Origin: Planctomycetota bacterium
GTDB lineage: Bacteria; Planctomycetota; UBA8108; UBA1146
NCBI GenBank assembly: GCA_036338595.1
Contig: JAYZBV010000065.1
Span: forward strand, 1 to 64,000
DNA length: 64,000 bases
Reading direction: 5' to 3'
Shown here: positions 2,146 through 17,055 of the stretch, one piece after another
How positions within the stretch are numbered: the stretch's first letter is position 1
Layout: every line of letters starts with the position of its first letter
Position numbers and translations under genes: made by a program
Notes under the pieces: model-generated
Databases searched by the model: none
The model's input: only the letters and a program-made list of their open reading frames with translations
What the model was told of the DNA's origin: nothing

Positions 2146-3258
2146 CTAGTTCTCCTTCCGGGGATTTTCTGTCCCCCCGGAGTTCTGGCCCAAGGACTTG
2201 ATGTACTCGGTAACCCACAGGATTTCTTTATCGGTGAGTTTCACCACAGGCATCTGCGGTGGGTATCCATCTGCGACCCTGTTCATTGGAAATCGGATCG
2301 AATCTTCGATGTATGCTTCATCTGCGATCAACTCGCCAGGTGTTCCGATGGAGATAAATTTCCGCATCGATCCGAACATGCCTTTCCACGAGGGACCGAC
2401 CTTTTTCGTGCCATCGATACTGTGGCACGAGATACACCCCCGCCGCTTCCAGACGATCTTGCCGTTCTCATCGAAGGGCAGTGTTTCGTCATAGGAACCG
2501 GCGACCTCCAGCCACTTCTCGTATTCCTCGACCGTCTCGTGGACCACCACCTTGCTATGCATCCAGGAGTGGCCCTGCCCGCAGTACTCGGCGCAGAACA
2601 GGTCGTAGATCCCGGGTTCGTTGGCCACGAACCACAACTTTCCCGTCCTGCCGGGAACACAGTCCTTCTTGACGCGAAACGCAGGGATGAACAGGGAGTG
2701 CAGTACATCCGCAGCCATCACGGTGATGTCGATGGGCACTCCCATCGGAACATGAAGGCCCGCTTTTTCGAGGATCTTGTCCTCTTGCGCTGCCGCCTGT
2801 TCGCTCGTGAACTCACCAGACCTGACCTTTGCTCTCACGGAGTTGAAGTCATCGGACATGCCCGGAATGGAGGCTCCATTGGAAGCGTAGGAGAAGTTCC
2901 AGGCCCATTTCTGCGCCTCTGCCACGATGGAGATCGAATCGGCGGGAGGCGTTTGCATCGCCACATACCCTCGATATCCATACCAGAACATCATCAGCGA
3001 AAGAATCAGCGGGATTCCGGTCCAGACCACCTCGAGCAACAGGTGGTGGTCATTATGAGTCTGAGCCTGGCCCCCCGGAGGAGTTCGATACTTCCACATG
3101 AAGATCGCAAGCAGAGCAGTGATCAGTACGAGAAAGAAGATCGAGACCCAGTAGACGAAGTAGAAGTCCCAGTCGACTGGACCTGCGAAATTGGACACCG
3201 GCGCAGGAAGCCAGAAGCTCGGTTTACTCTGGGCCAGGATCGCCATCAGTGGATTCAT
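2146..3258 (-). CDS. coxB: Cytochrome c oxidase subunit II with C-terminal cytochrome c (caa3 type)
   Basis: Two TM helices, EVVWT, CuA ligands DVLHS...[13 protein letters not shown]-terminal CISCH heme c motif with a distal Met (QMP). Confidence 0.95.
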
Positions 3259-4217
3259 GACTGCAACTGCTCTCTCCGTGGATCCGAAGGTTTATCCGTT
3301 TCTCCACGCTGGGGTCCTTTTCGCCACAATCGGAGCAGGAAGCCACTCAATCCGAGGACTGCGAGTATCCCTCCCAGGCGCATCACCTTGAGAGCGGCAG
3401 GACCGTATTGAGCTATGGTTGGATCGTATACAAAACAGGTCAGGACAAAATCGTCTAGCCAGTTGCCGACCTTGCCGTCGGAAGCCTCGACCAGTGCCAG
3501 TCGGAGAGTCTGGGGATCGTATTCGATTCCCTTGATCGTCTGGGTGAGCACCGCATCCGGGCTGACGATGAAGATTCCTGCGCCGTGGGCGTACTCGTTA
3601 TTGAAGTCATTCCAGCGATACTCGAACCCTACAGAGTCGGCAATCGCCCTGAGCGAAGGTTCCTGACCCGTCAAGAAATGCCATCCGTCTCTGGCATTGG
3701 ACACATCGGATCCAGAAAGCACTGCCGATTCCTCCAGCGCCTCGACCAGCAACGACTCTCGGTTTCGGGCATCCCTTGCAGAATCACGCGGGTCAATGCT
3801 GAGTGTGATCACATCGAAATCGATGCCGATCTCGAGGCCACACTGCGCAACAGATTCCACCAGGCCTTCAACAACGAGATTGCAGAGCATCGGGCAGGAA
3901 AAATAAACCGGATTCAGGATCACAGGACGACCTGATTCGAACACCTTTCCCAGTGTTGTCTGTTCTCCCGATTCGCGACGGATGATTTGATCGAGCGGCA
4001 ACGGGTTGCCCAGCTGATCATGAATCGTCAGACCTTCGATCGATTTGAGCACTGGATCGAGGTCCTGATTGTAATTTTGTCCCGGAGTCATGGATGGGGT
4101 CTGTCCCATCAGTGTCGCAGACATCAACAGGGCGAGCAGGACCGATGCTGACGATGCACCACCCGGCGTCAGCCGGCTAGCGTCCATCACAGCCTGAATC
4201 AGTCTGTCGATCCGCAT
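3255..4217 (-). CDS. SCO/SenC-family copper chaperone
   Basis: YFSCPMLC CxxxC motif, SIDP, WHFLTG, YAH, C-terminal TM helix; lies between the ACIII and oxidase genes; AAGGAG RBS. Confidence 0.88.
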   Translation of the reverse strand: MRIDRLIQAVMDASRLTPGGASSASVLLALLMSATLMGQTPSMTPGQNYNQDLDPVLKSIEGLTIHDQLGNPLPLDQIIRRESGEQTTLGKVFESGRPVILNPVYFSCPMLCNLVVEGLVESVAQCGLEIGIDFDVITLSIDPRDSARDARNRESLLVEALEESAVLSGSDVSNARDGWHFLTGQEPSLRAIADSVGFEYRWNDFNNEYAHGAGIFIVSPDAVLTQTIKGIEYDPQTLRLALVEASDGKVGNWLDDFVLTCFVYDPTIAQYGPAALKVMRLGGILAVLGLSGFLLRLWRKGPQRGETDKPSDPRREQLQS

Positions 4218-4233
4218 CTCTACAAACTCCTTC

Positions 4234-4563
4234 TCATTGCTCCGAATTTCCGTACCTCTTCAGAACCTTTTCTCGGCCCTGATCGAGGGGAATGGAAACC
4301 CGGTTGTTCTCGATATCAGTCCAGGTATAGGTCTCAAGTTGCTGTACCTGCTTGCTCTTCACCTGATGGAGCCAGCGACTCTCTGCCTGGATCGACCTGT
4401 CAAACACATTGAGTTTTTCCATGTCCGAGAGGTAAACCAGCAAGTAGACGGAGAAGAGGAGAATCACCGCAAAAATGACGCCCCCGTACCATGTAGGAAT
4501 CGCGCTCGGGTCATCTCCGGAGCCGGGAAGATCCTTGGTACTGTCTGTCATTGTCTGACTCAT
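4234..4563 (-). CDS. Small single-TM protein, ActG-like ACIII accessory subunit
   Basis: ATG at 4563 (MSQTMTD) after AAAGGAG; one TM helix and a C-terminal LETYTW..RVSIPLDQ segment; lies after actF. Confidence 0.6.
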   Translation of the reverse strand: MSQTMTDSTKDLPGSGDDPSAIPTWYGGVIFAVILLFSVYLLVYLSDMEKLNVFDRSIQAESRWLHQVKSKQVQQLETYTWTDIENNRVSIPLDQGREKVLKRYGNSEQ

Positions 4564-4591
4564 CTCTGACTCCTTTCCATTCGACCCAAAA

Positions 4592-5959
4592 TCATGCGTT
4601 CTCGAACGCCAGCGACTCCGGCATTCTCGGATCCTTCTCGGCAATCAGCGAATGCCCTCGGAGCGACAGAGCCAGCCCGATGATGAAGAGTCCGCCCATT
4701 CCGATTGGAATCGTGATATCCACCATCTTGAACGGGAATTCAGTGCCGTTGGAGATCTGTGGCATCACGAGGTAGTACATATCTGCCCAGTGCATCGCGA
4801 GTACCCACATCGCTCCGAAAGCGATCGTTGCTCGCTTGCGTTTGATGTGCCTCGAGACCAGGAACAAGAACGGCACGAAGAAGTGCCCCACCACCATCAA
4901 CCAGCCCCAGAATCCCCACATCCAGGTACTCTGACGCCTGACGAACCAGATCGTCTCTTCAGGGATATTCGCGTACCAGTAGAGCATGTACTGACTGAAC
5001 GCGATGTAGGCCCAGAAGATGGTGAAGGCGAACATCATCTTGCCGATGTCTTGCATGTGCTCATCGGAAATCGCTCTGGTCAGCCGACCCTTGGCCTGCA
5101 ACCAGACCACGATCAGAGCCAGCAGCGCGTGGAATGAGAGCACACAGCCTGCGAAGATGTAGACCCCGAAAATGGTACTGAACCAGTGCGCATCGAGACT
5201 CATCAACAGATCGTATCCTGCAAAGGTGATACTCAGTGCGAAGAGAGCCACTCCCAGGGGACTGATCCTGCTCAGTCGACTGCTGCGCTGCACATCCCCG
5301 TCGCGGTCCTGGGCCACGGATGAACGGTGGTAACTCCAGGCAAAAACTATCCAGATGAAAAAGTACACGCCCATGCGAATCAGGAACCAGTTGTAATCCA
5401 GGTACGATGACTTCACCGAGATGATCTCGTCGCCGGGATCGGGATGCACCCACTTGTAGAGAGATCCCATCGGCCCTGGCATCACGAGCGGACAGAAGAT
5501 CAGCGCCATCAACACGACATTTCTCGAGACTCCCTCAGCCAACCTTCTCACCACTGCACTCCAACCGGCGTTGGTGATGTGGTGGACCAGCACGAAGAAG
5601 AGCCCACCGAGTGTCATGGTGAGGAAGAAACAAGCGCTCACCAGGTACGGGTGCCAGATGCTCCACTCGGTATTGAATCCATGGATCGGGCCGTGATGAA
5701 CCGCATCGGACTCGCCATCGGTGGATCCATGACCGTCATCGACAACAGGCACCGCATCTCCATCGGTGGCGGCTTGCTGCTGGGACGGTTCTCCCCCTCC
5801 AGTGCCTTCGGCATCGAAAGCCCCTTCCAGGGAGCCAAGGATCACGGTGCCAACGATGCCGACCACCGCCATCACCGCTCCTAGCGCAATCAACTTGCCG
5901 GAGAGACTACCGAGAGTGCGGTTCTCGGTGCTGAGATCTACGGTTGTACCGTGTCCCAT
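4592..5959 (-). CDS. actF: Alternative complex III subunit ActF
   Basis: Multi-TM; AGWSAVVRRLAE, DLLMSLDAHWFSTIFG, HMQDIGK, WAYIAFSQYMLYWYANIPEET. Confidence 0.92.
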   Translation of the reverse strand: MGHGTTVDLSTENRTLGSLSGKLIALGAVMAVVGIVGTVILGSLEGAFDAEGTGGGEPSQQQAATDGDAVPVVDDGHGSTDGESDAVHHGPIHGFNTEWSIWHPYLVSACFFLTMTLGGLFFVLVHHITNAGWSAVVRRLAEGVSRNVVLMALIFCPLVMPGPMGSLYKWVHPDPGDEIISVKSSYLDYNWFLIRMGVYFFIWIVFAWSYHRSSVAQDRDGDVQRSSRLSRISPLGVALFALSITFAGYDLLMSLDAHWFSTIFGVYIFAGCVLSFHALLALIVVWLQAKGRLTRAISDEHMQDIGKMMFAFTIFWAYIAFSQYMLYWYANIPEETIWFVRRQSTWMWGFWGWLMVVGHFFVPFLFLVSRHIKRKRATIAFGAMWVLAMHWADMYYLVMPQISNGTEFPFKMVDITIPIGMGGLFIIGLALSLRGHSLIAEKDPRMPESLAFENA

Positions 5960-5964
5960 CGTGC

Positions 5965-6711
5965 CTACCTCCCCTGCCGGGAGTCGCTCCCGGTTTCTTT
6001 TTTCGGCTCGGAGCCGCCATCGCCCAAGAGCGCCTTCTCGCGAAGCAATCGTTCTCTGTCTGCTTGTGGGATCTCGGCGATGTCGATCGATTGGCTCATT
6101 TGCAGCGCCTTGACATGGGCAACGATGGCCCAGCGATCCTGAGGAGAGATCTGTGAACGATATCCGGGCATCGTGTTGATCCCGTAGCCGGTGATGTTGA
6201 AGATCTCACCAATCGGGTGGGCCAGTCCTTTTTCGGATGACAGATCCGAGACGAGCCAGGCTCCGTACTCGGAAGCTTCTGCGCGACGGCTCACCATTCC
6301 ATCTCCATGGCCAGACATCCCGTGACAGGGAATACAGTAGATGTTGAAGCGAGCCTCACCCCGAGCCAGCAATTCTGAATTGACCCGCACATCGGCAGGA
6401 AACTCCGTCGCCCACTCGCCGTCGATGGTGCCCCAGGTGTAATGCTCATCCAGAGAGAGTTCGCCGCGTGCCACGGTTCCTGGCACAGGTAACCGCATCG
6501 ATCGCCCGTCGGCGAAGAGTGGATTGGCACTCTGTGCCTTGAACTTTTGCTGCTGGTCCATGTCGTAAAAGACATGCAGCCTGGTCAGGCGAGAAGTTGC
6601 ATAGCGAGTCTTCGCCACCAGCATCGGAGGAACCAGCAGTGCCAGGTTCACCAGGATGATCAGCGAAATGATCCAACCCGGAACACTGGTTTCGCGAGTG
6701 GGTAATGCCAT
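5965..6711 (-). CDS. actE: Alternative complex III monoheme cytochrome c subunit ActE
   Basis: DMDQQQKFKAQ, FADGRSMRLPVPGTVARG, CIPCH, MPGY, DRWAIVAHV; operon position. Confidence 0.9.
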   Translation of the reverse strand: MALPTRETSVPGWIISLIILVNLALLVPPMLVAKTRYATSRLTRLHVFYDMDQQQKFKAQSANPLFADGRSMRLPVPGTVARGELSLDEHYTWGTIDGEWATEFPADVRVNSELLARGEARFNIYCIPCHGMSGHGDGMVSRRAEASEYGAWLVSDLSSEKGLAHPIGEIFNITGYGINTMPGYRSQISPQDRWAIVAHVKALQMSQSIDIAEIPQADRERLLREKALLGDGGSEPKKETGSDSRQGR

Positions 6712-6715
6712 GGTG

Positions 6716-7306
6716 TTACTCCTCGATCACTTCCACGGCACTGGCGCCGAGTTCTTGCAGAAGCCTGGAGTTGGAATCGATGTCGAACTGCCGATCACGC
6801 CCGTCGATGCTGATGAAGAATCGATCTGCAGTGGCACGACGGAAGCGATCGCTACGGAAATGAGGTCTGTAGAGACGAGGCAAACCGTTGAGAAGCAACA
6901 TTCCACCAAATGAGGCGAATGCACTGAACAGGATGGTCATCTCGAAGGCGACCGGGATACTCGCTGGGATGCTGAAAAATGGCTTTCCGCTGATCAGGAA
7001 CGGATAATCGATGGCGTTCATCCAGCCCTGCATCAACAAGCCACCGGAAAAGCCAAGGAAGCCTCCGCACAGGACGATCCAGGGTAACAGCGTCGGCTTC
7101 ACCCCCATCGCTGCATCGAGACCGTGGACAGGGTAGGGAGTATGGCAATCCCACAATTTGAAGCCCTTGTCCCGGACTTCTGCGGCCGCCTCCATCAGTC
7201 CATCGGCAGTGGCGAACTCTGCCAGCATCAACACCGGCTTCGGATCGATGGCCGTCTCTGCCGTGATCGTCTCGACGCCGTTTGAGCTGTTCATCTGTGA
7301 TTCCAT
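6716..7306 (-). CDS. actD: Alternative complex III subunit ActD (DUF3341)
   Basis: DCHTPYPVHGLDAAMG, YPFLISGKPFFS, PVAFEMTILF; start reassigned to ATG 7306 just after the actC stop. Confidence 0.9.
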   Translation of the reverse strand: MESQMNSSNGVETITAETAIDPKPVLMLAEFATADGLMEAAAEVRDKGFKLWDCHTPYPVHGLDAAMGVKPTLLPWIVLCGGFLGFSGGLLMQGWMNAIDYPFLISGKPFFSIPASIPVAFEMTILFSAFASFGGMLLLNGLPRLYRPHFRSDRFRRATADRFFISIDGRDRQFDIDSNSRLLQELGASAVEVIEE

Positions 7307-7317
7307 CTCTGCCCCCC

Positions 7318-8811
7318 CTACGATTCCGCGGCGGGCTTCGCCGCCGATTCCGGGGAAGGTTGTTGATGGGCACGCGCCTTCGCTTGTGCCTGCTCTGCGA
7401 GCACCCCCCTCACCTCGCTCATGGCGATGAAGGGAAGGAATCTGCAGAACAGTGCGAACAAGGTGAAGAAGAGCCCGAATGCACCGAGCAAGATCATCAC
7501 ATCCGCGAGTTTGGGACTGTAATAGTCCCACGCACTGGTCGTGAATTCATTGGCAAGGCTTGTCACCGTGATGACGAATCGCTCGAACCACATGCCGATA
7601 TTCACGAAGATGCTGACTATGAACATCACCCAGATATTGGTTCTCATCTTCTTGAACCAGAAGATCTGAGGCGACAGCACATTACAGGAAACCATGATCC
7701 AGTAGGCCCAGGCGTACTGGCCAAAGGCTCTGTTGATGAAGGCGAATTTCTCCACCTTCACACCGCCATACCAGGCCATGAAGAACTCCTGAGAGTAGGC
7801 GTATCCGACCAGCATGCCGGTGAGCATGATGATCTTGTTCATGTTTTCGAGGTGCTTGAGGGTGATCACATCCTTGAGCCCGAAAAGCTGTCGAGCAGGC
7901 ACAAGCAAGGTCATCACCATCGCGAAGCCACTGAAGATGGCTCCCGCAACGAAATAGGGCGGGAAGATCGTCGTGTGCCAGCCGGGAATCTGCGAGACCG
8001 CGAAGTCGAAGGACACCACGGAGTGCACCGATAGCACCAGCGGAGTGGCCAGAGCTGCCAGCAGCAGATAGGAACGCTCGTAGACATGCCACTGGCGATT
8101 GGACCCGGTCCAACCGAGCGAAAGAGCGCCATAGGCGACCTTGCGCACGGTGTGCTTGGCCCGATCCCGTAGCGTCGCGAGATCCGGGATCATTCCCATG
8201 TACCAGAACAACAACGAGACGGTGAAGTAGGTTCCGACGGCAAATACATCCCACACCAATGGACTGCGGAAGTTGGGCCACAATTCCATCTGGTTCGGCA
8301 ATGGAAACATCCAGTATGCGAACCAGGCTCGCCCGACGTGGATCCCCGGGAACATTCCAGCGCAGATCACGGCAAAGATGGTCATCGCTTCTGCAGCACG
8401 GTTGATGGATGTACGCCACTTCTGTCGAAACAGGAACAGGATTGCAGAGATCAGCGTGCCTGCGTGGCCGATTCCGACCCAGAACACGAAGTTCACGATG
8501 GCATAGCCCCAGCCAACAGGATTGTTGACTCCCCAGGTCCCCACTCCCCAGAAGATCAGGAATGGAACGAATACACCGAGTAATCCAAGCACCGAGAAAG
8601 CCAGCAGAAAGAAGCCCCACCAGCCGATCGTGGGCTTGTCCTCGACGATCCCGCACACCTTGTCGGTGATGGTCGTGTTGTCATTGTCTCCGGTGATGAG
8701 CGGGGTACGGCTATCTGGAGAGTACGCCGTATTATCGATTTCTGGACTCTCCGCGCCCCCGGTCAATTCGGGCCTGACGATCGGACTCAGCGTTTCGAGG
8801 AGTCGTTTCAT
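7318..8811 (-). CDS. actC: Alternative complex III quinol-oxidising subunit ActC (NrfD/PsrC family)
   Basis: [76 protein letters not shown]. Confidence 0.96.
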
Positions 8812-8816
8812 ATCAG

Positions 8817-11800
8817 TTACCCCTCATCCCGCACCGAGTTGTTGCGCAGTTTGGCAAGGAAACTGGTTCGCGGTTTGACATTCAATTCGGCGAGCATCTT
8901 GTAAGCCCGATGCGACTTCTGAGTACGAGAAACCTGACTATCCGGGTCAGCGAGATCGCCGAAGGTGATCGCATGTGTCGGACAGGATTGCGCACACGCT
9001 GGCAGCACATCCCCATCGACCATCTCTCGATCCTCATTCTTGGCCTTGATCTTGGAACTATTGATCCGTTGAACGCAATAGGTGCACTTCTCCATCACCC
9101 CCCGTGCCCGGATGGTGACTTCAGGGTTGTAACCCATCTGCTCCGTCGCACTGGGATTCTTGGTGTTGTTGAAGTAGTTGAATCGGCGCACCTTGTAAGG
9201 GCAGTTGTTGCTGCAATACCGGGTGCCGATGCAACGATTGTAGACCATGTCATTGAGGCCCTCTTCATTGTGAACGGTCGCCGCCACCGGGCAGACCTGT
9301 TCACAGGGCGCATTTTCACACTGATTGCAGGTGAGAGGCTGGTGTACCACCTCCGGATTATCGACATCCTCACCCATGAAGTAGCGATCGATGCGTATCC
9401 AGTGCATCTCTCGACCGTAGGCGACCTCATCCTTGCCCACCACCGCGATGTTGTTCTCCGCCTGACACGCAACCACGCAAGAACTACACCCGGTGCAGAG
9501 ATTCAGGTCGATCGACATCGCCCATCGGTGACTGGTGTACTCGTGTTCCTTCCATGGACTCACCAGATCAGGGTGGTGAGGTCCCGCGGCAGTGACTTGC
9601 TTTGCGACTTCGCCGGCATCTGGAGTGGAATCGCAATCCACAACACGCACATATTCGCCCGCTCGACGTTGCTCCTCGTTGAACTCCAGATCTCCCATGA
9701 ACTCGTCGGGGCGTATCGGATTGTGATCCTGGGTCGTGGCCAGTTCGTAGGTTCCTCCCGAGCGAGACACGCTCACGGAGGCAAAGCCTGCCCTCAAGGC
9801 AGCCGCGTTGCGAAGCCGATAGGTATCGAAGCCGACCCCATCGGCGATCTGGTAGATGGATGGTTTGCGTGACAGGCGTCCTGCGGCGCGATCCGAGATC
9901 AAGCGGCCGTATCCAAGCGCCACTCCGATGGTGTCCTGGTTCTGTCCCGGCAGGACAAATACCGCCATCTCGAGACTCTCCCCCGCCACGGTGAGGTCCA
10001 CCATGTCGCCATTCTTGACCCCGAGTTCGGACGCCAGAAGTGGGGATATCATGGCGCAATTGTCCCAGGCGACCTTGGTCACCGGATCCGGCAGTTCCTG
10101 AAGCCAGCCATTGTTGGCATGGCGGCCATCGAAACGGGAGTGATCGGGCAGGAAGACGATTTCCTTGCCTCCCACCGACTGCATCGAGGCTTCCAGCGCC
10201 GCTCCCCAGCCCCCACGGATATCGGGAGCGACATCGACGGCATTCGAGGTCTCGGCGATGAAGCCATCGTGCAACCACTGCTTCCAGGAACCTTCGAAGT
10301 CGGATGAAGCCATCGGGCGCAGATATTCTCTCACGATATCGTGACCCGATTTCATCTCGTCATCGACGACTGCGCTGACCACTTCGATGGCACTTCGCCC
10401 CGAGTACAGGGGAGCGATGAGAGGTTGCCGCAGCGTCACGGTGCCATCCCAGCTGCGGCCGTCTCCCCATTCTTCGAGGAAGTGAGTCTGATTGAGATGC
10501 CACTGGCACGCTCGCGCAGTCTCATCCTCGTACAGTCCAAGGTGTATCGAGTGGGGAACCTGGCCGATCAACTCTGACCATGACTGCCCCAACTGGGGGG
10601 CGTCATAGACGGGGTTGACCCCTAGCATCAGCAGAGTCTCGACCTCACCCGCACGAATGCGGTCGGCGAGGAGTTGAAGGTCGTCGATGTGCTCAGGTCG
10701 CTCTCCGTGAGAGACCTCAGCATATCTGAGTACTTTTCCGGCAGCTCCAAGAGCGATGTTCATGGCATGGACAAGAGCATGGACTGCGGGTGGTTGACGG
10801 TCCCCCGCCATCACCAGACAGGCTCCCTGGTGGGCGACCAGGTCATCTGCCATCCGCTGGATGCGCCCGTCGCTGGGAGCAGTGACGGAGCCAACGCTGC
10901 TCGCCACATCTGCAGGCAGCGAGACTCCGGTGGCCGCCGCCAACTGGGCCGCGATCTTGGGTATGTCGGATGTCCGTGCCGGGATCCTGACATCCGCAGC
11001 ACCCCCCGTCACCGACAGTGTGCTCTCCACCGCCCAGACCCTGGACAGAATCGGTTCGTCATCGTCTGCGGAGGTACGTAGCGCCGCCCAGCCACTGCTG
11101 TGGCGTAGACTCGCCGGATGATTCATCAAGGGATCGGCATCGAGGCAAACCAGCACCCTGGCGGAAGAGAGGTCTGCCACCGGTCGCATCGGTCTGCCAA
11201 ATACCTGAGCGGTTCCTGTACGTTCAGAATCGCGATTCACCGGCGCCCACTCGTGCCAGGATGACTCCGGCACTTCTCGCAGAAGACGCTTTCGCATCGC
11301 CTGGTGTGCGATCGAAGAACTGGGAGCCGCCAGCACGGAGACCTTGCCAGATCTTCCTGCATTTCTGATCACCTCGATCGCCTGGTCCCAGTCTCCAGCG
11401 ACTCGGCCAGCCGATTGCGCATGGGTGGGTTCGGTGCTCCTGCCCGGGTCATACATCCCCAGAACACTCGCCTGCATCTGCGAGGTGGAAGATCCACGGT
11501 GATCGGGATGATCGCCGTTGCCATCGACACGGATCGGCCTGCCATCGTAACTGGTGACCAGAACTCCCTCGGCAACCTCCTGCTGCTCCCAGCAGGATGC
11601 ATAGGTTTCCGGCACACCGGGAGCCTGCCCCGCAGGACGGCTGGTATGGGGAAGAATCTTTTGTGTGGGCCAGTGACAACCGGCCAACCCTCCCGCCAGC
11701 GCCATCGAAGCGCCCATCACCTTGAGGAAATGTCGCCTCGAGGTGGACGTGAACAGTTCGGGCGCATGGTTCGGGAACTCCTTCTCGACCAGAGCTCGGA

Positions 11801-11885
11801 ATTCAGGAGTATCCGCGTACTCGTCGAGACTACGCCAGAGAGCTTTACCCTGTTGGGGCTCGTGCTGTTCTTTTATCGATGACAT
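8817..11885 (-). CDS. actB: Alternative complex III subunit ActB (molybdopterin-oxidoreductase-like domain fused to an Fe-S domain)
   Basis: WRSLDE, Tat motif SRRHFLK then lipobox-like [16 protein letters not shown]; Fe-S motifs [39 protein letters not shown]...CAQSC. Start set at ATG 11885. Confidence 0.95.
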
Positions 11886-12568
11886 GTTGAGCAGTTCGTC
11901 ATGAGGGTCATCCGGACTGTCGGCTGTTCCGACTCGTCGTACAACCCGAGGTCCTTCATCAATTCCCGACCTTGCGTCGCCTTCTCGGCTGGAGTGCGTT
12001 CCAGTCCCCAATCGAGATCGGTCACCTTATCGACCGGCCTCAACCTGGACTCAGGATTGCGGTGGCAATCAAGGCACCAACCCATGCTCAATGCAGCCAC
12101 CTGATGGACTTCCTCCATCTGATCAATCCTTCCGTGGCATTCGACACAGGAAACTCCCCGGGTCACATGAGCACTGTGATTGAAGTAAACATAATCAGGG
12201 AGATCGTGAACCTTGATCCATGGCACTGGCATTCCGGTGGCGAAGGAATCGCGAATCGGTTTCAACTTCATACTTGTCGGAGCGATCTTGCCGTGACAGT
12301 TCATGCATGTCTCGGTCGGTGGCACGGCAGCAAACCCGGCGCTCTCCACGGTTGTGTGGCAATACCGACAATCAAGCCCCAGTTCTCCAACATGCAAGGC
12401 GTGACTGTAGGGAACCGGTTGCTCTGGCATGTATCCAGCATTGAGAGTCTTGGGGGAGGCGCCGAAGTTGATCATCAACACGACATAAAGGCCGCTCACT
12501 GCAGCTCCAGCACCAAGCAACTTGATGAGTTGATCCACCCAGGGCGGAAAAATAGGGGTGCGATTCAT
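11873..12568 (-). CDS. actA: Alternative complex III pentaheme cytochrome c ActA
   Basis: N-terminal TM, PEQPVPYSHALH, five CxxCH motifs (CRYCH, CMNCH, CVECH, CLDCH, CSTCH), LPDYVYFNHSAH. Confidence 0.95.
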   Translation of the reverse strand: MNRTPIFPPWVDQLIKLLGAGAAVSGLYVVLMINFGASPKTLNAGYMPEQPVPYSHALHVGELGLDCRYCHTTVESAGFAAVPPTETCMNCHGKIAPTSMKLKPIRDSFATGMPVPWIKVHDLPDYVYFNHSAHVTRGVSCVECHGRIDQMEEVHQVAALSMGWCLDCHRNPESRLRPVDKVTDLDWGLERTPAEKATQGRELMKDLGLYDESEQPTVRMTLMTNCSTCHR

Positions 12569-12837
12569 CTGTTCGAAGTTCCTCCTGGCCCCACGAATGT
12601 AGCTGAGCAAACTCGAGCACCGCGATCACTGCTGGGGAGAGGTTGGAGCGTTTCGAGAAGTCTCCAGTGGCGTACAGAAAATAGCGAACCTTGCGGGTCG
12701 CACCTTCCGTCCTCTTCCCCCCCCAGGCCGAGACGGAACGCTGACTACTGGCAGGTTCCACCCACGGGCACAGGCTAGCGAACGGTCCCGGATTCGCAAA
12801 CGAACCCGACGATTTTTTTCATTAATTTGGGGATCAA

Positions 12838-14190
12838 TTAGTCTCCGGTGAGAGCCCCGTTTGGATCCCGATCCAGGTCCGCAGATGGCACCCTCCGGCA
12901 CCAGCACAGCAGCGCTGCCGAGATGCACAAGATGACCGCTCCGAGACTCTGGTGGAGAGTCGCCAGCAGCGTCTCCGAAACTCCGCTGGAGGCACTTCTG
13001 ACCTCGCTGCCGGTCGCAGCGAGAGTCATGAATCCGAGCGACAGCTGCGTGATCGTTGCCAGAATCATCGCTATCGCTAATCGACTCCGGGTTCTCGAAC
13101 TGGATTCCTGACCGACCATCGCAGCGACCACGATCACGGCCAGCAATGCCAGAAATCCGCCGATCAGGTGAGGAACCACCCAGGACCGAGAGATGTGTCG
13201 AGAAAGGCCACCCAACAGTAACTGACAGCACAACAGCACCAGCAGCCATCGACTGGCGCGGGCCCAGCTTCGATGATGGACCACGGGCGCTTCGGTGCGC
13301 CAGCTGATGGAGGCGAGGGTCGCCATCACGGCCAGAACCGCGAGAAAGAGCTGACCGTGGATGCCATGGACGACTCTCAGAACCAGACTCAATCCGGATT
13401 CGACCGATTCCGTCACCTGGCCAGCCACCACCTCCACCGATTTCGCTTCTGTCACCCGATATCCCCCGAGGATGCCCTGTACCACCACTTGAACCGAGGC
13501 GAGCAGGCCCAGCCACGAGAGGGACCTGCGCCTGGCGATTCGCCAGCAGTAGATCGCCATCGACAGGGTGACCAGGCCGACCAGAGATCCGAAGAGCCGG
13601 TGGGCGTGTTCGTAATAGATTCCTCCGGTCATCCTGGAGAGAGGCAGCAGAAACATGTTGTTACCAAATGAGCCTGGCCAGTCGGGAACCGCCATCCCCG
13701 CCTCTTCGCTGGTCACGAGTCCTCCGATCCCGACCAGCATCAAGGTCGCAAAGAACGCGGTACGAGTGATCGACTCGACACCCTTCTCGGCTGTCGATCC
13801 TCCACCGGAGGTGGTGGCAGCACCCAGAGCAGCGAGAGCCATGCAACTGAGCACGAAGGTCGACGCGGACACCACGACACTCGAAACCGTTGCCTCCTCT
13901 GGCACCAGCACCGCACCCAGTACCAGCAGGTCGATCACGCCGGCAATCGCGCCCGTCATCAGTGCGGACCGGAATCTGTCGGAACTTCGAGAAGCAGCGA
14001 CTCTCCCTGCCAGGATCAGGATCATGACGAGCAGAAAAAAGAGCAGCCACGGCGGCGCTTCGATGAAGGGGAGGCGACAGAGATACCCGGCACTCCACAT
14101 CGACACCGTGGCCCCGATGCCGACCGGAATCGCAGCAATCCACCAGGAAACGGGATCCTGGGGCGACAACGTCCCTGTCTTTCCGGTCAT
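12838..14190 (-). CDS. ctaA: Heme A synthase (COX15/CtaA family) with N-terminal membrane extension
   Basis: GGLVTS..AGMAVPDWP, YEHAHRLFG, QGILGG, HGIHGQ, PHLIGG, LHQSLG; adjacent to the aa3 oxidase operon. Confidence 0.85.
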   Translation of the reverse strand: MTGKTGTLSPQDPVSWWIAAIPVGIGATVSMWSAGYLCRLPFIEAPPWLLFFLLVMILILAGRVAASRSSDRFRSALMTGAIAGVIDLLVLGAVLVPEEATVSSVVVSASTFVLSCMALAALGAATTSGGGSTAEKGVESITRTAFFATLMLVGIGGLVTSEEAGMAVPDWPGSFGNNMFLLPLSRMTGGIYYEHAHRLFGSLVGLVTLSMAIYCWRIARRRSLSWLGLLASVQVVVQGILGGYRVTEAKSVEVVAGQVTESVESGLSLVLRVVHGIHGQLFLAVLAVMATLASISWRTEAPVVHHRSWARASRWLLVLLCCQLLLGGLSRHISRSWVVPHLIGGFLALLAVIVVAAMVGQESSSRTRSRLAIAMILATITQLSLGFMTLAATGSEVRSASSGVSETLLATLHQSLGAVILCISAALLCWCRRVPSADLDRDPNGALTGD

Positions 14191-14580
14191 TTTTCCCCGA
14201 TCCAACCACGGACTCTGCCCTGCGAAAGATCATCTGGCACCGGCTTGCCGCCAGATTGCGTCCTGTCCCTGCCGGATCAAAGAATCTCCCACATGAGGAA
14301 TCAAGGAAATCATCGAGTCTCGTGCTTCGAATCGACACAATTTTTCACTCTTGAAATTGATCCCCCCTTCACGGGAGGGGACTCCTGTGGGAGAATAGAG
14401 CCTCAGGCGCGTTTTCGGCTACCGGTCCGCCTTTAACCGGATGGCCACGACGACTGCTCCGAGGCTTTTGAATTGATGCTAGAGAAAAACCAGCTCACAC
14501 CCTGAGGAAGATGTTTGTCCGGTCTTCGGATACCCGCCATCTTTTCCCAGCGGTCAATGAGCCAAGAGAGGACAGCTATC

Positions 14581-17055
14581 GTGCGTTCCCTTTTCAGTTT
14601 GTTTGTGTGCCTGGCCCTGTTGATACCGACCATGTTGGTGGCTCAGCCTGATGTCATCGTCGGAGATCTTCCCAATACCAACTCCTATGGCACCAGTACA
14701 GGAACTGGCATCTACGCGTACTCCGTCGCTACCACATCCTGCAACATCGGAACGGCGAACCTGAACTGGCAAGCCAACAACAATCAGCACCCCGTGATCG
14801 CACAGGATATGTGGAGACTTCACGAAGGACGGTTCACTCAAATCGGTTCCTCCTGGCTCAAGCACGGCTTCTGTGCGCTGCAGAACACCGGCCTTTGCGC
14901 CGGCTGCGGTGGCGGAGGTGGTTGCCTCAGTTACCTGACTCCCGGTTGTGCTGATCCCTACTCTGCAGGGCTCAACGGCAATCAGAGCAATCTTGGTCCT
15001 CGTTCGCAGGTCAATGCATTCACAGGATTCTTCCCGTACCCCTACAACGCTCCCCCATGCCCCAGCGGGCAGGGAACCATCTGCAGACGGGTTCAGGTTC
15101 AAGAAAGTGACATGATCGGACTGCCAGGCGCACTTTTCTTCGTCAGTGGCCAGTATGTCGCTTCCGACGATTCGAACTTCGGTAATCAGGCGAACAATGC
15201 CTCCTACCGCCGCGTCAATGTTTCCCAGTCCGGCAACCACAGCCTCAGTTTCGTCGGAGGCACACAACAGCAATCTCCGCCGATCCAGGCGTGGCAAGAT
15301 AATCAGCCCTCCGTGACTCTTGTCGATGTGGAGGTCCCCAACGAGGGTCTCTTCATCGCAGGTTACGATGTGATCGATAATGGCAATGGCACCTACAACT
15401 ACGAGTACGCGGTCTACAACATGTACTCGGATCGCTCCGCCAGGAGTTTCTCGGTTCCTTACCCCGCAGGCGCAACCATCCTCGACCACGGATTTCACGA
15501 CCTCACCTGGCACAGCGGCGAACCCTACGATGGAACCGACTGGAATGTGACACTACTGCCCGGGATCGGGATTTCATGGGAGACGGACACTTTTGCCGCC
15601 AATCAGACCGCCAATGCGATGCGCTGGTCGATGATGTTCAACTTCTACTTCACCAGCGATGCTCCTCCGGCGCCCAATTCCGCAACCCTGGGCCTCTTCA
15701 AGCCAGGTGCAGCGGGAGATCCCGACGAGTTGACCTTCGATGTCTTGGCGCCATCTGGCAACTTCCTGCCCGGTGTCCAGAACCTCGCCTGTGACCTGGG
15801 AACCACGACTGCTCCATCCGTCAATTTGTCCTGGACGAATCCGGAGACTTACACATCGATCACGGTCCGTCGGGAAGGTTCGACCATCGCTACCCTCTCG
15901 GGAGGAGCGACCGCTTACACCGATGCCAACGCTTCCTACGGATTGACCACTTACACGGTGCAGGCGGAGCAGGGTTCCGTGCCCGCCGCCGAGATCCCGT
16001 GCCAGATCAACATCACTCCGCAACCGCAGGGCAACTTCAGTTGTTCACAGCCAGACCCCGAGGCGAACGATGTTCTGCTGAGCTGGTCCAATGGCATGAC
16101 CTACGATGCGATCAGCCTGTCTCGAAATGGCACCCTGATTGCAAGCATGGGCGGTGACACGACCTCCTACACCGATTCTGGTGCGTCCGTGAGCAGTCAT
16201 TTCTACACGATGAGCGCCAGTTCCGGCGGTGTGACCACAGCAACCCTCGAGTGCGTCATCACGGTGCTACCTCCCCCGCCGCTGGGCTTCACCGTGACCG
16301 CACCAACGGTCTCCGCTGGATTCGATCCAGGCACCGGAGCCGGCTCTTTCTCTGCGCTTCTCACCGCCATTGAATCGCCCTCGAATACCGGATACCCCAA
16401 TCCGATCAGTGGCTACTCGTTGGCCCTGGTTTTCGATGGGTCGCTGGCTCTCGTCAGTGCCCTCGATGAAACAGTCGTGCCCGCAGACCTCGACTTCTTC
16501 GACGGACAGTGGGGAGATGGCTGGGTCACCATCGGTGCAGTGGTCGATTTCACCAGCGCCACTTCGCTCGATCTCTCGTCCGATGTAAATCTGGCAAGTG
16601 TCGAGTTCAACACCAACCCGGGTGGATTGATCGGCCAGATGAATCCGGTCTCATCGGCGCTCAGTTGGCAAAATGGCGTCAATGGAGGCGGCCTTCCCGT
16701 CGACAACCTGATCGTTGTCGGCTCAACTCCGATGGCTCCCAGCTTCGTACACGGGGCGATCAATCTCGCTCCTGGCGCCGGCGAGACCTTCGTTCGTGGC
16801 GACATCAATGATGACTCGGTGATCAACATCGCTGACGCAGTCGCTGGCTTGACCTATCTCTTCAACGGCGGTCCCGCTGGCTGCATCGATGCGGTCGACA
16901 CCAATGACGATTGCCAGGCGAACGTTGCGGATGGCGTCTATCTTCTCGGCTTCCTCTTTTCGGGTGGCGCAGCGCCGCCAGCACCGAGTCCAAATTGTGG
17001 GTCCGATACGACGGCAGACGCACTCGAGTGTGCCACTTACAACAGCTGCCCCTGA
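14581..17055 (+). CDS. Large secreted modular protein: lysyl-oxidase-like domain, beta-sandwich, 2x FN3-like, cohesin-like, C-terminal dockerin
   Basis: GTG start after GAGAGG; signal peptide ending MLVA-Q; two LSWxN..Y....TxYTD repeats; duplicated Ca-binding dockerin motif FVRGDINDDSVINIAD...DTNDDCQANVAD. Confidence 0.8.
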   Translation: MRSLFSLFVCLALLIPTMLVAQPDVIVGDLPNTNSYGTSTGTGIYAYSVATTSCNIGTANLNWQANNNQHPVIAQDMWRLHEGRFTQIGSSWLKHGFCALQNTGLCAGCGGGGGCLSYLTPGCADPYSAGLNGNQSNLGPRSQVNAFTGFFPYPYNAPPCPSGQGTICRRVQVQESDMIGLPGALFFVSGQYVASDDSNFGNQANNASYRRVNVSQSGNHSLSFVGGTQQQSPPIQAWQDNQPSVTLVDVEVPNEGLFIAGYDVIDNGNGTYNYEYAVYNMYSDRSARSFSVPYPAGATILDHGFHDLTWHSGEPYDGTDWNVTLLPGIGISWETDTFAANQTANAMRWSMMFNFYFTSDAPPAPNSATLGLFKPGAAGDPDELTFDVLAPSGNFLPGVQNLACDLGTTTAPSVNLSWTNPETYTSITVRREGSTIATLSGGATAYTDANASYGLTTYTVQAEQGSVPAAEIPCQINITPQPQGNFSCSQPDPEANDVLLSWSNGMTYDAISLSRNGTLIASMGGDTTSYTDSGASVSSHFYTMSASSGGVTTATLECVITVLPPPPLGFTVTAPTVSAGFDPGTGAGSFSALLTAIESPSNTGYPNPISGYSLALVFDGSLALVSALDETVVPADLDFFDGQWGDGWVTIGAVVDFTSATSLDLSSDVNLASVEFNTNPGGLIGQMNPVSSALSWQNGVNGGGLPVDNLIVVGSTPMAPSFVHGAINLAPGAGETFVRGDINDDSVINIADAVAGLTYLFNGGPAGCIDAVDTNDDCQANVADGVYLLGFLFSGGAAPPAPSPNCGSDTTADALECATYNSCP

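Follow-up and report, generated by a model that had tools for sequence, protein, structure and literature searches.

Lysine tyrosylquinone (LTQ), the cofactor of lysyl oxidase (LOX), is made from a lysine and a tyrosine that lie 35 residues apart in human LOX (PMC4448552). In LOXL2 the copper is held by a His-x-His-x-His talon, and each of the substitutions H626Q, H628Q and H630Q is reported to leave 0% LTQ and no activity (PMC9694262). Prokaryotic LOX proteins with an intact talon are known (PMC4448552; PMC6452851), and the active enzyme of Haloterrigena turkmenica demonstrates copper amine oxidase function of the fold beyond animals (PMC6452851). A 2025 review lists LTQ for lysyl oxidase only, with autocatalytic formation, and describes a structure of the mature LTQ enzyme as lacking (PMC11951088). 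Here, we analyze a gene of a marine planctomycete at positions 14581..17055, plus strand, of a 64,000-nucleotide stretch (the window) of contig JAYZBV010000065.1, assembly GCA_036338595.1, whose product resembles lysyl oxidase in predicted fold and in cofactor residues yet is not a member of PF01186. We refer to this protein and its homologues as the talon-less family. A first-pass annotation, made from the sequence alone, had read its N-terminal domain as either a divergent quinone amine oxidase or a LOX-fold pseudoenzyme; the LOX fold and the conservation of Lys and Tyr stood up, while the His cluster that it proposed as a ligand set and any functional meaning of the neighboring respiratory operon did not. 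The size of the family and the iron-sulfur partner gene described below had escaped it.

Compared with LOXL2 (PF01186; PDB 5ZE3), the protein shares the predicted fold over residues 547-760, Lys and Asp-x-Tyr in register, the third talon His, the calcium-site residues, two disulfide positions and a secretion signal. It differs in the deletion of the His-x-His hairpin (337/337 family sequences), a new His beside the Lys, an attached second beta-sandwich, the lack of a PF01186 score, dockerin-like or other surface tails, and a linked gene for an iron-sulfur partner protein. Canonical prokaryotic LOX is likewise prokaryotic and secreted and keeps the LTQ residues, but it retains H-x-H-x-H (13/13 aligned domains) and is the rarer of the two in the phylum, in 14 genomes versus 60.

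Conservation was read from 424 pooled sequences, of which 10 with more than 25% gaps were dropped and 337 were kept at below 90% identity; residues are numbered from the Gln encoded at 14644 as residue 1. Conservation of at least 95% is reached in just 30 columns. His49, Lys73, His74, Asp104 and Tyr106 are among them, and these five persist at identities as low as about 30%, as well as in three genomes from another phylum. The residues on which the comparison turns are the following.

14650..14655, plus strand: Asp3-Val4, aligned with the LOXL2 calcium ligands Asp549-Leu550 (equivalence inferred from the alignment); Asp in 322/337, with 14 gaps
14788..14790, plus strand: His49, at or beside LOXL2 His630, the third talon His; 330/337, with the upstream His-x-His hairpin deleted
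14860..14862, plus strand: Lys73, equivalent to LOXL2 Lys653, the LTQ lysine; 329/337, aligning with the invariant LOX Lys
14863..14865, plus strand: His74, family-specific, at the position of LOXL2 Ala654; 331/337, a candidate replacement metal ligand
14872..14949, plus strand: Cys77/Cys94 and Cys85/Cys102, likely the LOXL2 disulfides Cys657-Cys673 and Cys663-Cys685
14953..14961, plus strand: Asp104-Pro-Tyr106, with Tyr106 equivalent to LOXL2 Tyr689, the LTQ tyrosine; Asp104 and Tyr106 each 329/337
15166..15198, plus strand: Asp175-Asp176 and Asn184-Asn185, likely the rest of the LOX calcium site (Glu722/Asp724/Asn727/Asn728)
15511..15513, plus strand: His290 in the second beta-sandwich; 312/337, a possible third ligand and a candidate only

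All the ordered motifs named by the first-pass annotation are present in the same order, and its central claim, that the cofactor Lys and Tyr are retained 33 codons apart (Lys73 at 14860, Tyr106 at 14959), was borne out by their strict conservation and by the way they disappear. Lys73 is lost in 8/337 sequences, and with it Tyr106 in 7/8 and Asp104 in 7/8; these joint losses fall in three places in the tree (4 parsimony changes), and 3 of the 8 are repeats in one protein. Since they are lost together, Lys73 and Tyr106 behave as one functional unit. The eight sequences are all intact at 21 of the 27 remaining conserved columns; of the rest, mainly Gly118 (5/8) and Asn111 (4/8) are affected. In a coupling analysis of 65,341 residue pairs, Lys73-Asp104 ranked 96th and Lys73-Tyr106 104th, ranks that are driven by the same 8 sequences and are not independent of the coupled-loss count. 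We lean towards the Lys-Tyr cofactor being formed.

That Lys73 is coupled as strongly to Asp104 as to Tyr106 would also fit another chemistry, either a cross-link that is not a quinone (an isopeptide between Lys73 and Asp104, or a Lys-Tyr bond) or a catalytic 2-His/carboxylate site with Fe, Zn or Mn. The 2-His-1-carboxylate arrangement is a familiar metal-site motif, and the two His together with the conserved Asp would fit it. We regard this explanation as improbable: Asp-x-Tyr is also invariant in canonical LOX, so that conservation of the Asp is explained by inheritance, and the Tyr is lost along with the Lys.

Separately, one homologue, P0003 (1,371 amino acids), carries three tandem two-domain units, all without Lys73 and Tyr106 and keeping His49 and His290. 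Together with P0123 and P0128 it possibly forms a pseudoenzyme clade that would serve as a natural negative control. The C-terminal 170 amino acids of P0123 match a PEP-utilising swivel domain, and this record is probably an assembly chimera.

The claim of a LOX fold was upheld by predicted structure. LOXL2 ranked first in three structure comparisons, in one of which 166 residues were aligned versus 115 for the next match. This match needed the single-domain model as the Foldseek query; the two-domain model returned generic two-sandwich matches, with LOXL2 not among the matches listed. The fold of the topaquinone (TPQ) copper amine oxidases (CAO) was likewise not among the matches listed in the structure comparisons, and a search of the ESM Atlas yielded three unnamed clusters (0.90-0.93) with a low recognition value, which we treat as weak evidence. 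Sequence profiles were largely silent: Pfam gave no relevant match for the protein or for 56 aligned members, the curated PF01186 cut-off was reached neither by the protein, nor by the 56 members, nor anywhere in the genome, an NCBIfam search gave no useful match, and PDB sequence searches with the single protein or a profile matched only the dockerin tail. For a direct comparison we used a canonical set of 18 PF01186 loci collected from Planctomycetota, of which 13 were aligned and one matches LOXL2 at E 6e-28. Alignment of the family to this set with hhalign (E 0.002, probability 13.7%) placed Lys on Lys and Tyr on Tyr. Three weak matches in another phylum (E ~1e-4) were confirmed by neither profile and therefore provide no sequence bridge to canonical LOX.

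A resemblance of this kind could in principle arise by convergence on the common Ig-like sandwich, an explanation that we hold to be very remote given the 166 aligned residues versus 115 for the next match, and given that the Lys, Asp-x-Tyr, flanking Cys and calcium ligands that fall in register are the family's own invariant residues. The calcium ligands of LOXL2 are Asp549, Leu550, Glu722, Asp724, Asn727 and Asn728 (PMC5899467). At the aligned positions of the family, residue 176 is Asp or Glu in 335/337 sequences, Asn184 is kept in 329/337 and Asn185 in 324/337. Cys85 and Cys102 occur in 336/337 and 337/337, the Cys77-Cys94 pair has coupling rank 17, and Cys94 never occurs without Cys77. 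By alignment, the residues of both the LOX calcium site and the core disulfides are thus kept in the family, and the domain is almost certainly homologous to LOX.

The metal site is where the family departs from LOX. The suggestion that the copper-binding cluster is cut to one His was confirmed: His-x-His occurs at positions 34-58 in 0/337 sequences, 310 have a single His there, and the His-x-His-x-His copper talon is absent from the family, through a hairpin deletion of about 10 residues. His49 lies 24 positions from the Lys, versus 23 for its counterpart in LOXL2, and so falls within one residue of LOXL2 His630. The KHG motif, which had been put forward as a source of ligands, does yield a candidate in His74, a position that is not His in any of the 13 canonical LOX domains; in LOXL2, the corresponding Ala654 is described as adjoining Tyr689 (PMC9659206). 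Because the Arg58-Thr65 coupling and the model strands 51-60 and 63-74 set the register of the beta-hairpin, His49 is predicted to lie about opposite His74 across it. The later HGFHDLTWH cluster, proposed as a further ligand set, did not hold up, with His282 found in 15/259 sequences and His285 in 183/259, leaving only His290 conserved, and this one within the present subfamily but not in distant ones. In one sequence, His49 and His290 are lost together. We put copper at His49/His74 at slightly short of an even chance.

The family is large. An initial search returned 2,656 proteins among 7,992 candidates, and a profile search returned 2,029 representatives of 50%-identity clusters at E<=1e-30, looser counts being inflated by dockerin columns. 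Members occur in 60/301 Planctomycetota genomes, and canonical PF01186 LOX in 14 of the same 301; only three genomes, all of one genus (G183, G216 and G263), hold both. The present genome (2.9 Mb) encodes seven copies, all with Asp3, His49, Lys73, His74, Asp104, Tyr106 and His290. Relatives in named records are nearly all from Planctomycetota metagenome-assembled genomes, and full-length distant members were found in 3/300 further genomes from another phylum (that of G301). We found no description of the family in the open-access literature, in a search that covered article texts; PMC4448552 gathered its sequences by PF01186, which does not match the talon-less family.

Most genomes with the family also encode a putative redox partner, which lies outside the window and is a NapH/MauN-like polyferredoxin with C-terminal tetratricopeptide (TPR) repeats. 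It has two Cys motifs, two 4Fe-4S motifs and six hydrophobic segments, possibly seven. Like the NapH/MauN and CcoG/YccM polyferredoxins it is a membrane protein with these paired motifs, but it differs from them in its sub-cut-off TIGR02163 score, the lack of a CcoG match, the C-terminal TPR repeats, and four invariant residues around the end of the first helix, His63, Glu78, Glu81 and Met83, which form a candidate metal site. The best NCBIfam match of its iron-sulfur part is NapH/MauN (TIGR02163, E 1e-14 to 1e-17), with 54-64 bits in 3/3 partner proteins against a cut-off of 213. In known systems, NapH serves as a subunit of a quinol dehydrogenase, and mauN is a gene of methylamine dehydrogenase clusters. 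The related membrane iron-sulfur protein CcoG is reported to be a cupric reductase for oxidase assembly and maturation (PMC7558416).

With three candidates scored per genome, the partner was found at E<=2e-60 in 45/301 genomes, the next best match being at 5e-35. All 45 lie within the 60 family-bearing genomes, and a strong match occurred in 0/241 of the others: the partner implies the family, and not the reverse. The stricter idea that the family is always co-encoded with the partner fails, as this holds in only 45/60 Planctomycetota genomes. Within the genome families f26 (3/10), f27 (3/6) and f9 (6/7) both searches returned the same genomes, and f45 and f47 also agreed. One to three partner copies occur per genome, alongside several paralogues of the family, and partner and family genes are at most 3 kb apart in 16/45 genomes and at most 20 kb apart in 20/45, distances taken from a family list that is incomplete by up to 38 weak matches. 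A Fisher test on co-location was set aside because kin are not independent. An open reading frame (ORF) with a ferredoxin motif was seen in 8/142 family loci. In the present genome the partner gene is located as follows.

G000:C77:34324-36264 (L162:4322-6259), minus strand: partner gene, following a thioredoxin-like gene

Of the 15 family-bearing genomes in which the partner was not found, 13 fall in three genome families that have distant members only, and the other two are 86% and 90% complete. The partner was not found in G183, G216 and G263, and no other redox neighbor recurred around 13 loci from partner-lacking genomes. At one of these, a His/Glu-rich ORF (L182:3653-4552) lies directly downstream of the family gene and is absent from the other 12 clustered loci; we take it to resemble the heme-oxygenase-like diiron oxidases.

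Taken together, these observations are consistent with a secreted LTQ amine oxidase with a rebuilt metal site and the partner as a maturation reductase, a reading that we favor tentatively and below even confidence. Copper would be held by His49 and His74, with a third ligand from His290 of the second domain, a carboxylate or water. Tyr106 would be oxidized on the metal and then attacked by Lys73, as in LOXL2, to give LTQ. The mature enzyme would act at the cell surface, oxidizing primary amines, either peptidyl lysine or small amines, with formation of aldehyde, ammonia and H2O2. The partner would supply reduced metal or electrons during maturation and serve several paralogues. That the enzyme uses O2 as an amine oxidase, with the partner as a maturation factor, is likewise a possibility to which we give somewhat less than even weight. 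More broadly, and still more tentatively, the family may represent a second and much larger branch of the LOX superfamily, in which LTQ would be made without a talon, at a two-His site (His49/His74), and with a membrane iron-sulfur/TPR protein devoted to its maturation or to electron transfer.

Several results weigh against this proposal. Two of the three LOXL2 talon His equivalents are absent from the family, and no third His is universal in it: His290 is missing in 25/337 sequences, 20 of them distant members in which Lys73, His74, Asp104 and Tyr106 are kept (20/20), and in 13 further members from partner-lacking genomes. The loop of His290 couples to Ser69 and Ser121, several residues away from His74, and no His-His coupling was seen in the coupling analysis. 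In the eight Lys73-lacking sequences, His49 is kept in 8/8 and His74 in 7/8; because the pair persists in these variants, it is not tied to the cofactor alone and may serve something else. On the side of the partner, CcoG/RdxA/FixG (TIGR02745) has no match in this genome among six candidates scored, and the partner was not found in 15/60 family-bearing genomes, even with a core query, nor in the three family-bearing genomes of the other phylum. The partner gene of this genome is not adjacent to the gene analyzed here; 12 kb separate it from C77:21643-22689, the most distant paralogue. Finally, a trimmed profile scored 22.0 in hhalign, and 40 shuffled controls averaged 13.1 with a maximum of 23.0; because the score falls below the best shuffle, sequence alone is not decisive for homology to LOX.

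As a non-catalytic LOX-fold surface protein, an adhesin or metal-binding module, the protein would use Lys73-Asp104-Tyr106 as a structural or ligand-binding triad and His49/His74 to hold a structural metal. We consider this unlikely, as 98% of sequences, across 30% identity, retain Lys and Tyr at the exact LTQ positions, the two are lost together, and the redox partner is confined to family-bearing genomes. Equally unlikely, in our judgement, is a quinoprotein amine dehydrogenase, in which O2 would not be the electron acceptor: the reduced cofactor would be reoxidized by cytochromes c, or by way of the partner and the quinone pool. The full copper talon would then be dispensable because electrons bypass O2, and the complete loss of the talon, the NapH/MauN match of the partner's iron-sulfur part, and the cytochrome c domains (12/31) and GSDH propellers (7/31) found by Pfam in homologues chosen for length all fit such an enzyme. 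On the other hand, dockerin-like tails (144/256 homologues) and PEP-CTERM-like tails suggest surface display, distant from an inner-membrane carrier, fusions to cytochromes occur in a minority of homologues (22/256 have CxxCH motifs beyond the domain), within mosaic proteins, and the 15 partner-lacking genomes speak against it as well. The CxxCH-bearing homologues also count, as a weaker hint, in favor of the oxidase reading. Among the fusions, P0090, P0108, P0194 and P0196 are joined to four-heme c-type regions with two di-heme repeats and no PDB sequence match, and other family members are fused to GSDH propellers and hemes.

If the family is such a second branch of the LOX superfamily, no LTQ enzyme system before it would have had an accessory redox partner, and it may even be the first case of an LTQ dehydrogenase. 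More than 2,000 clusters (50% identity) keeping Lys and Tyr with a rebuilt metal site would show another route to LTQ or another use of it, the bacterial proteins would allow direct study of LTQ biogenesis, and uncultured Planctomycetota would gain a function for a surface protein that is multi-copy and unannotated. If inactive, the proteins would still amount to a large family of LOX-fold pseudoenzymes overlooked by present profiles.

Beyond the LOX-like domain, the protein is built as a chain of modules, in the order signal peptide, LOX-like domain, second beta-sandwich, Ig-like repeats, further beta domain and dockerin-like tail.

14581..17055, plus strand: whole gene, 824 amino acids, from the ORF and its translation; GTG start at 14581 and stop at 17055, with orthologues starting at the equivalent codon
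14581..14643, plus strand: predicted Sec signal peptide, read from sequence
14644..15300, plus strand: lysyl-oxidase-like domain, residues 1-219, aligned to LOXL2 547-760
15307..15753, plus strand: second beta-sandwich, residues 222-370, from the two-domain model and inter-domain couplings
15770..16780, plus strand: two Ig/FN3-like repeats and a further beta-rich (cohesin-like) region, from sequence only
16786..17052, plus strand: dockerin-like tail, matched by phmmer to the dockerin of endoglucanase SS (PDB 1DAQ, E 8e-5)

In close orthologues the hydrophobic leader ends just upstream of QPDVIV, and the mature chain likely starts at the Gln encoded at 14644. An N-terminal hydrophobic stretch occurs in 231/241 Met-starting homologues and a twin-Arg motif in 0/241. 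The protein is likely secreted and likely anchored by its dockerin. The second beta-sandwich, present in every intact homologue examined, is predicted to pack on the LOX-like domain, with a two-domain model of pTM 0.93 and couplings between the two domains. A stand-alone LOX-like domain was sought among 46 short homologues, and the 10 inspected were all truncated or off frame. An assignment of the second domain to the copper-binding YcnI/DUF1775 domain receives no support from sequence; the second domain is internal and lacks an N-terminal His brace, and PF07987 (YcnI/DUF1775) matched in 1/301 genomes, one without the talon-less family. The names Ig/FN3-like and cohesin-like for 15770..16780, where the Pfam search of the protein gave no match, were given by eye and are presumptive.

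The gene is divergent from ctaA (Pfam COX15-CtaA) and from the minus-strand respiratory operon that includes ctaA and an SCO-like gene (window 3255-14205). Apart from ctaA, identified by Pfam, we take this operon, from its motifs, to encode an alternative complex III (multiheme c, molybdopterin-like/Fe-S, NrfD-like and further subunits). A functional meaning of this arrangement was not supported: with flanks of 4 kb, some shorter, ctaA adjoins 26/78 family loci, all with genes at least 67% identical to this one, and 0 of the other 52. The adjacency is limited to close orthologues and is therefore lineage synteny. A scan for promoters and terminators gave results at chance level. In four RNA runs belonging to three studies, much of the gene is matched by assembled contigs, with pieces of up to 1,839 nt and ~93-96% identity; these contigs derive from close relatives, may include DNA contamination of the libraries and do not allow levels to be read, and the low cover of flanking genes is not read as an expression difference.

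Several variants extend this picture. Distant members at L191-L193 and L182:4575-6737 have an extra N-terminal domain of ~220 amino acids, and in the distant members of the other phylum tails that look PEP-CTERM-like by eye replace the dockerin. Records titled Bacillota, Proteobacteria or Rickettsiales (L083, L099 and L114-L117) hold copies that are planctomycete-like, which makes mislabeling or misbinning of these records probable; the copy in L083 shares the synteny and has 97% identity. Among canonical proteins, the genome G125 encodes five PF01186 domains (L011 and L015-L018), which sit at the ends of long secreted proteins.

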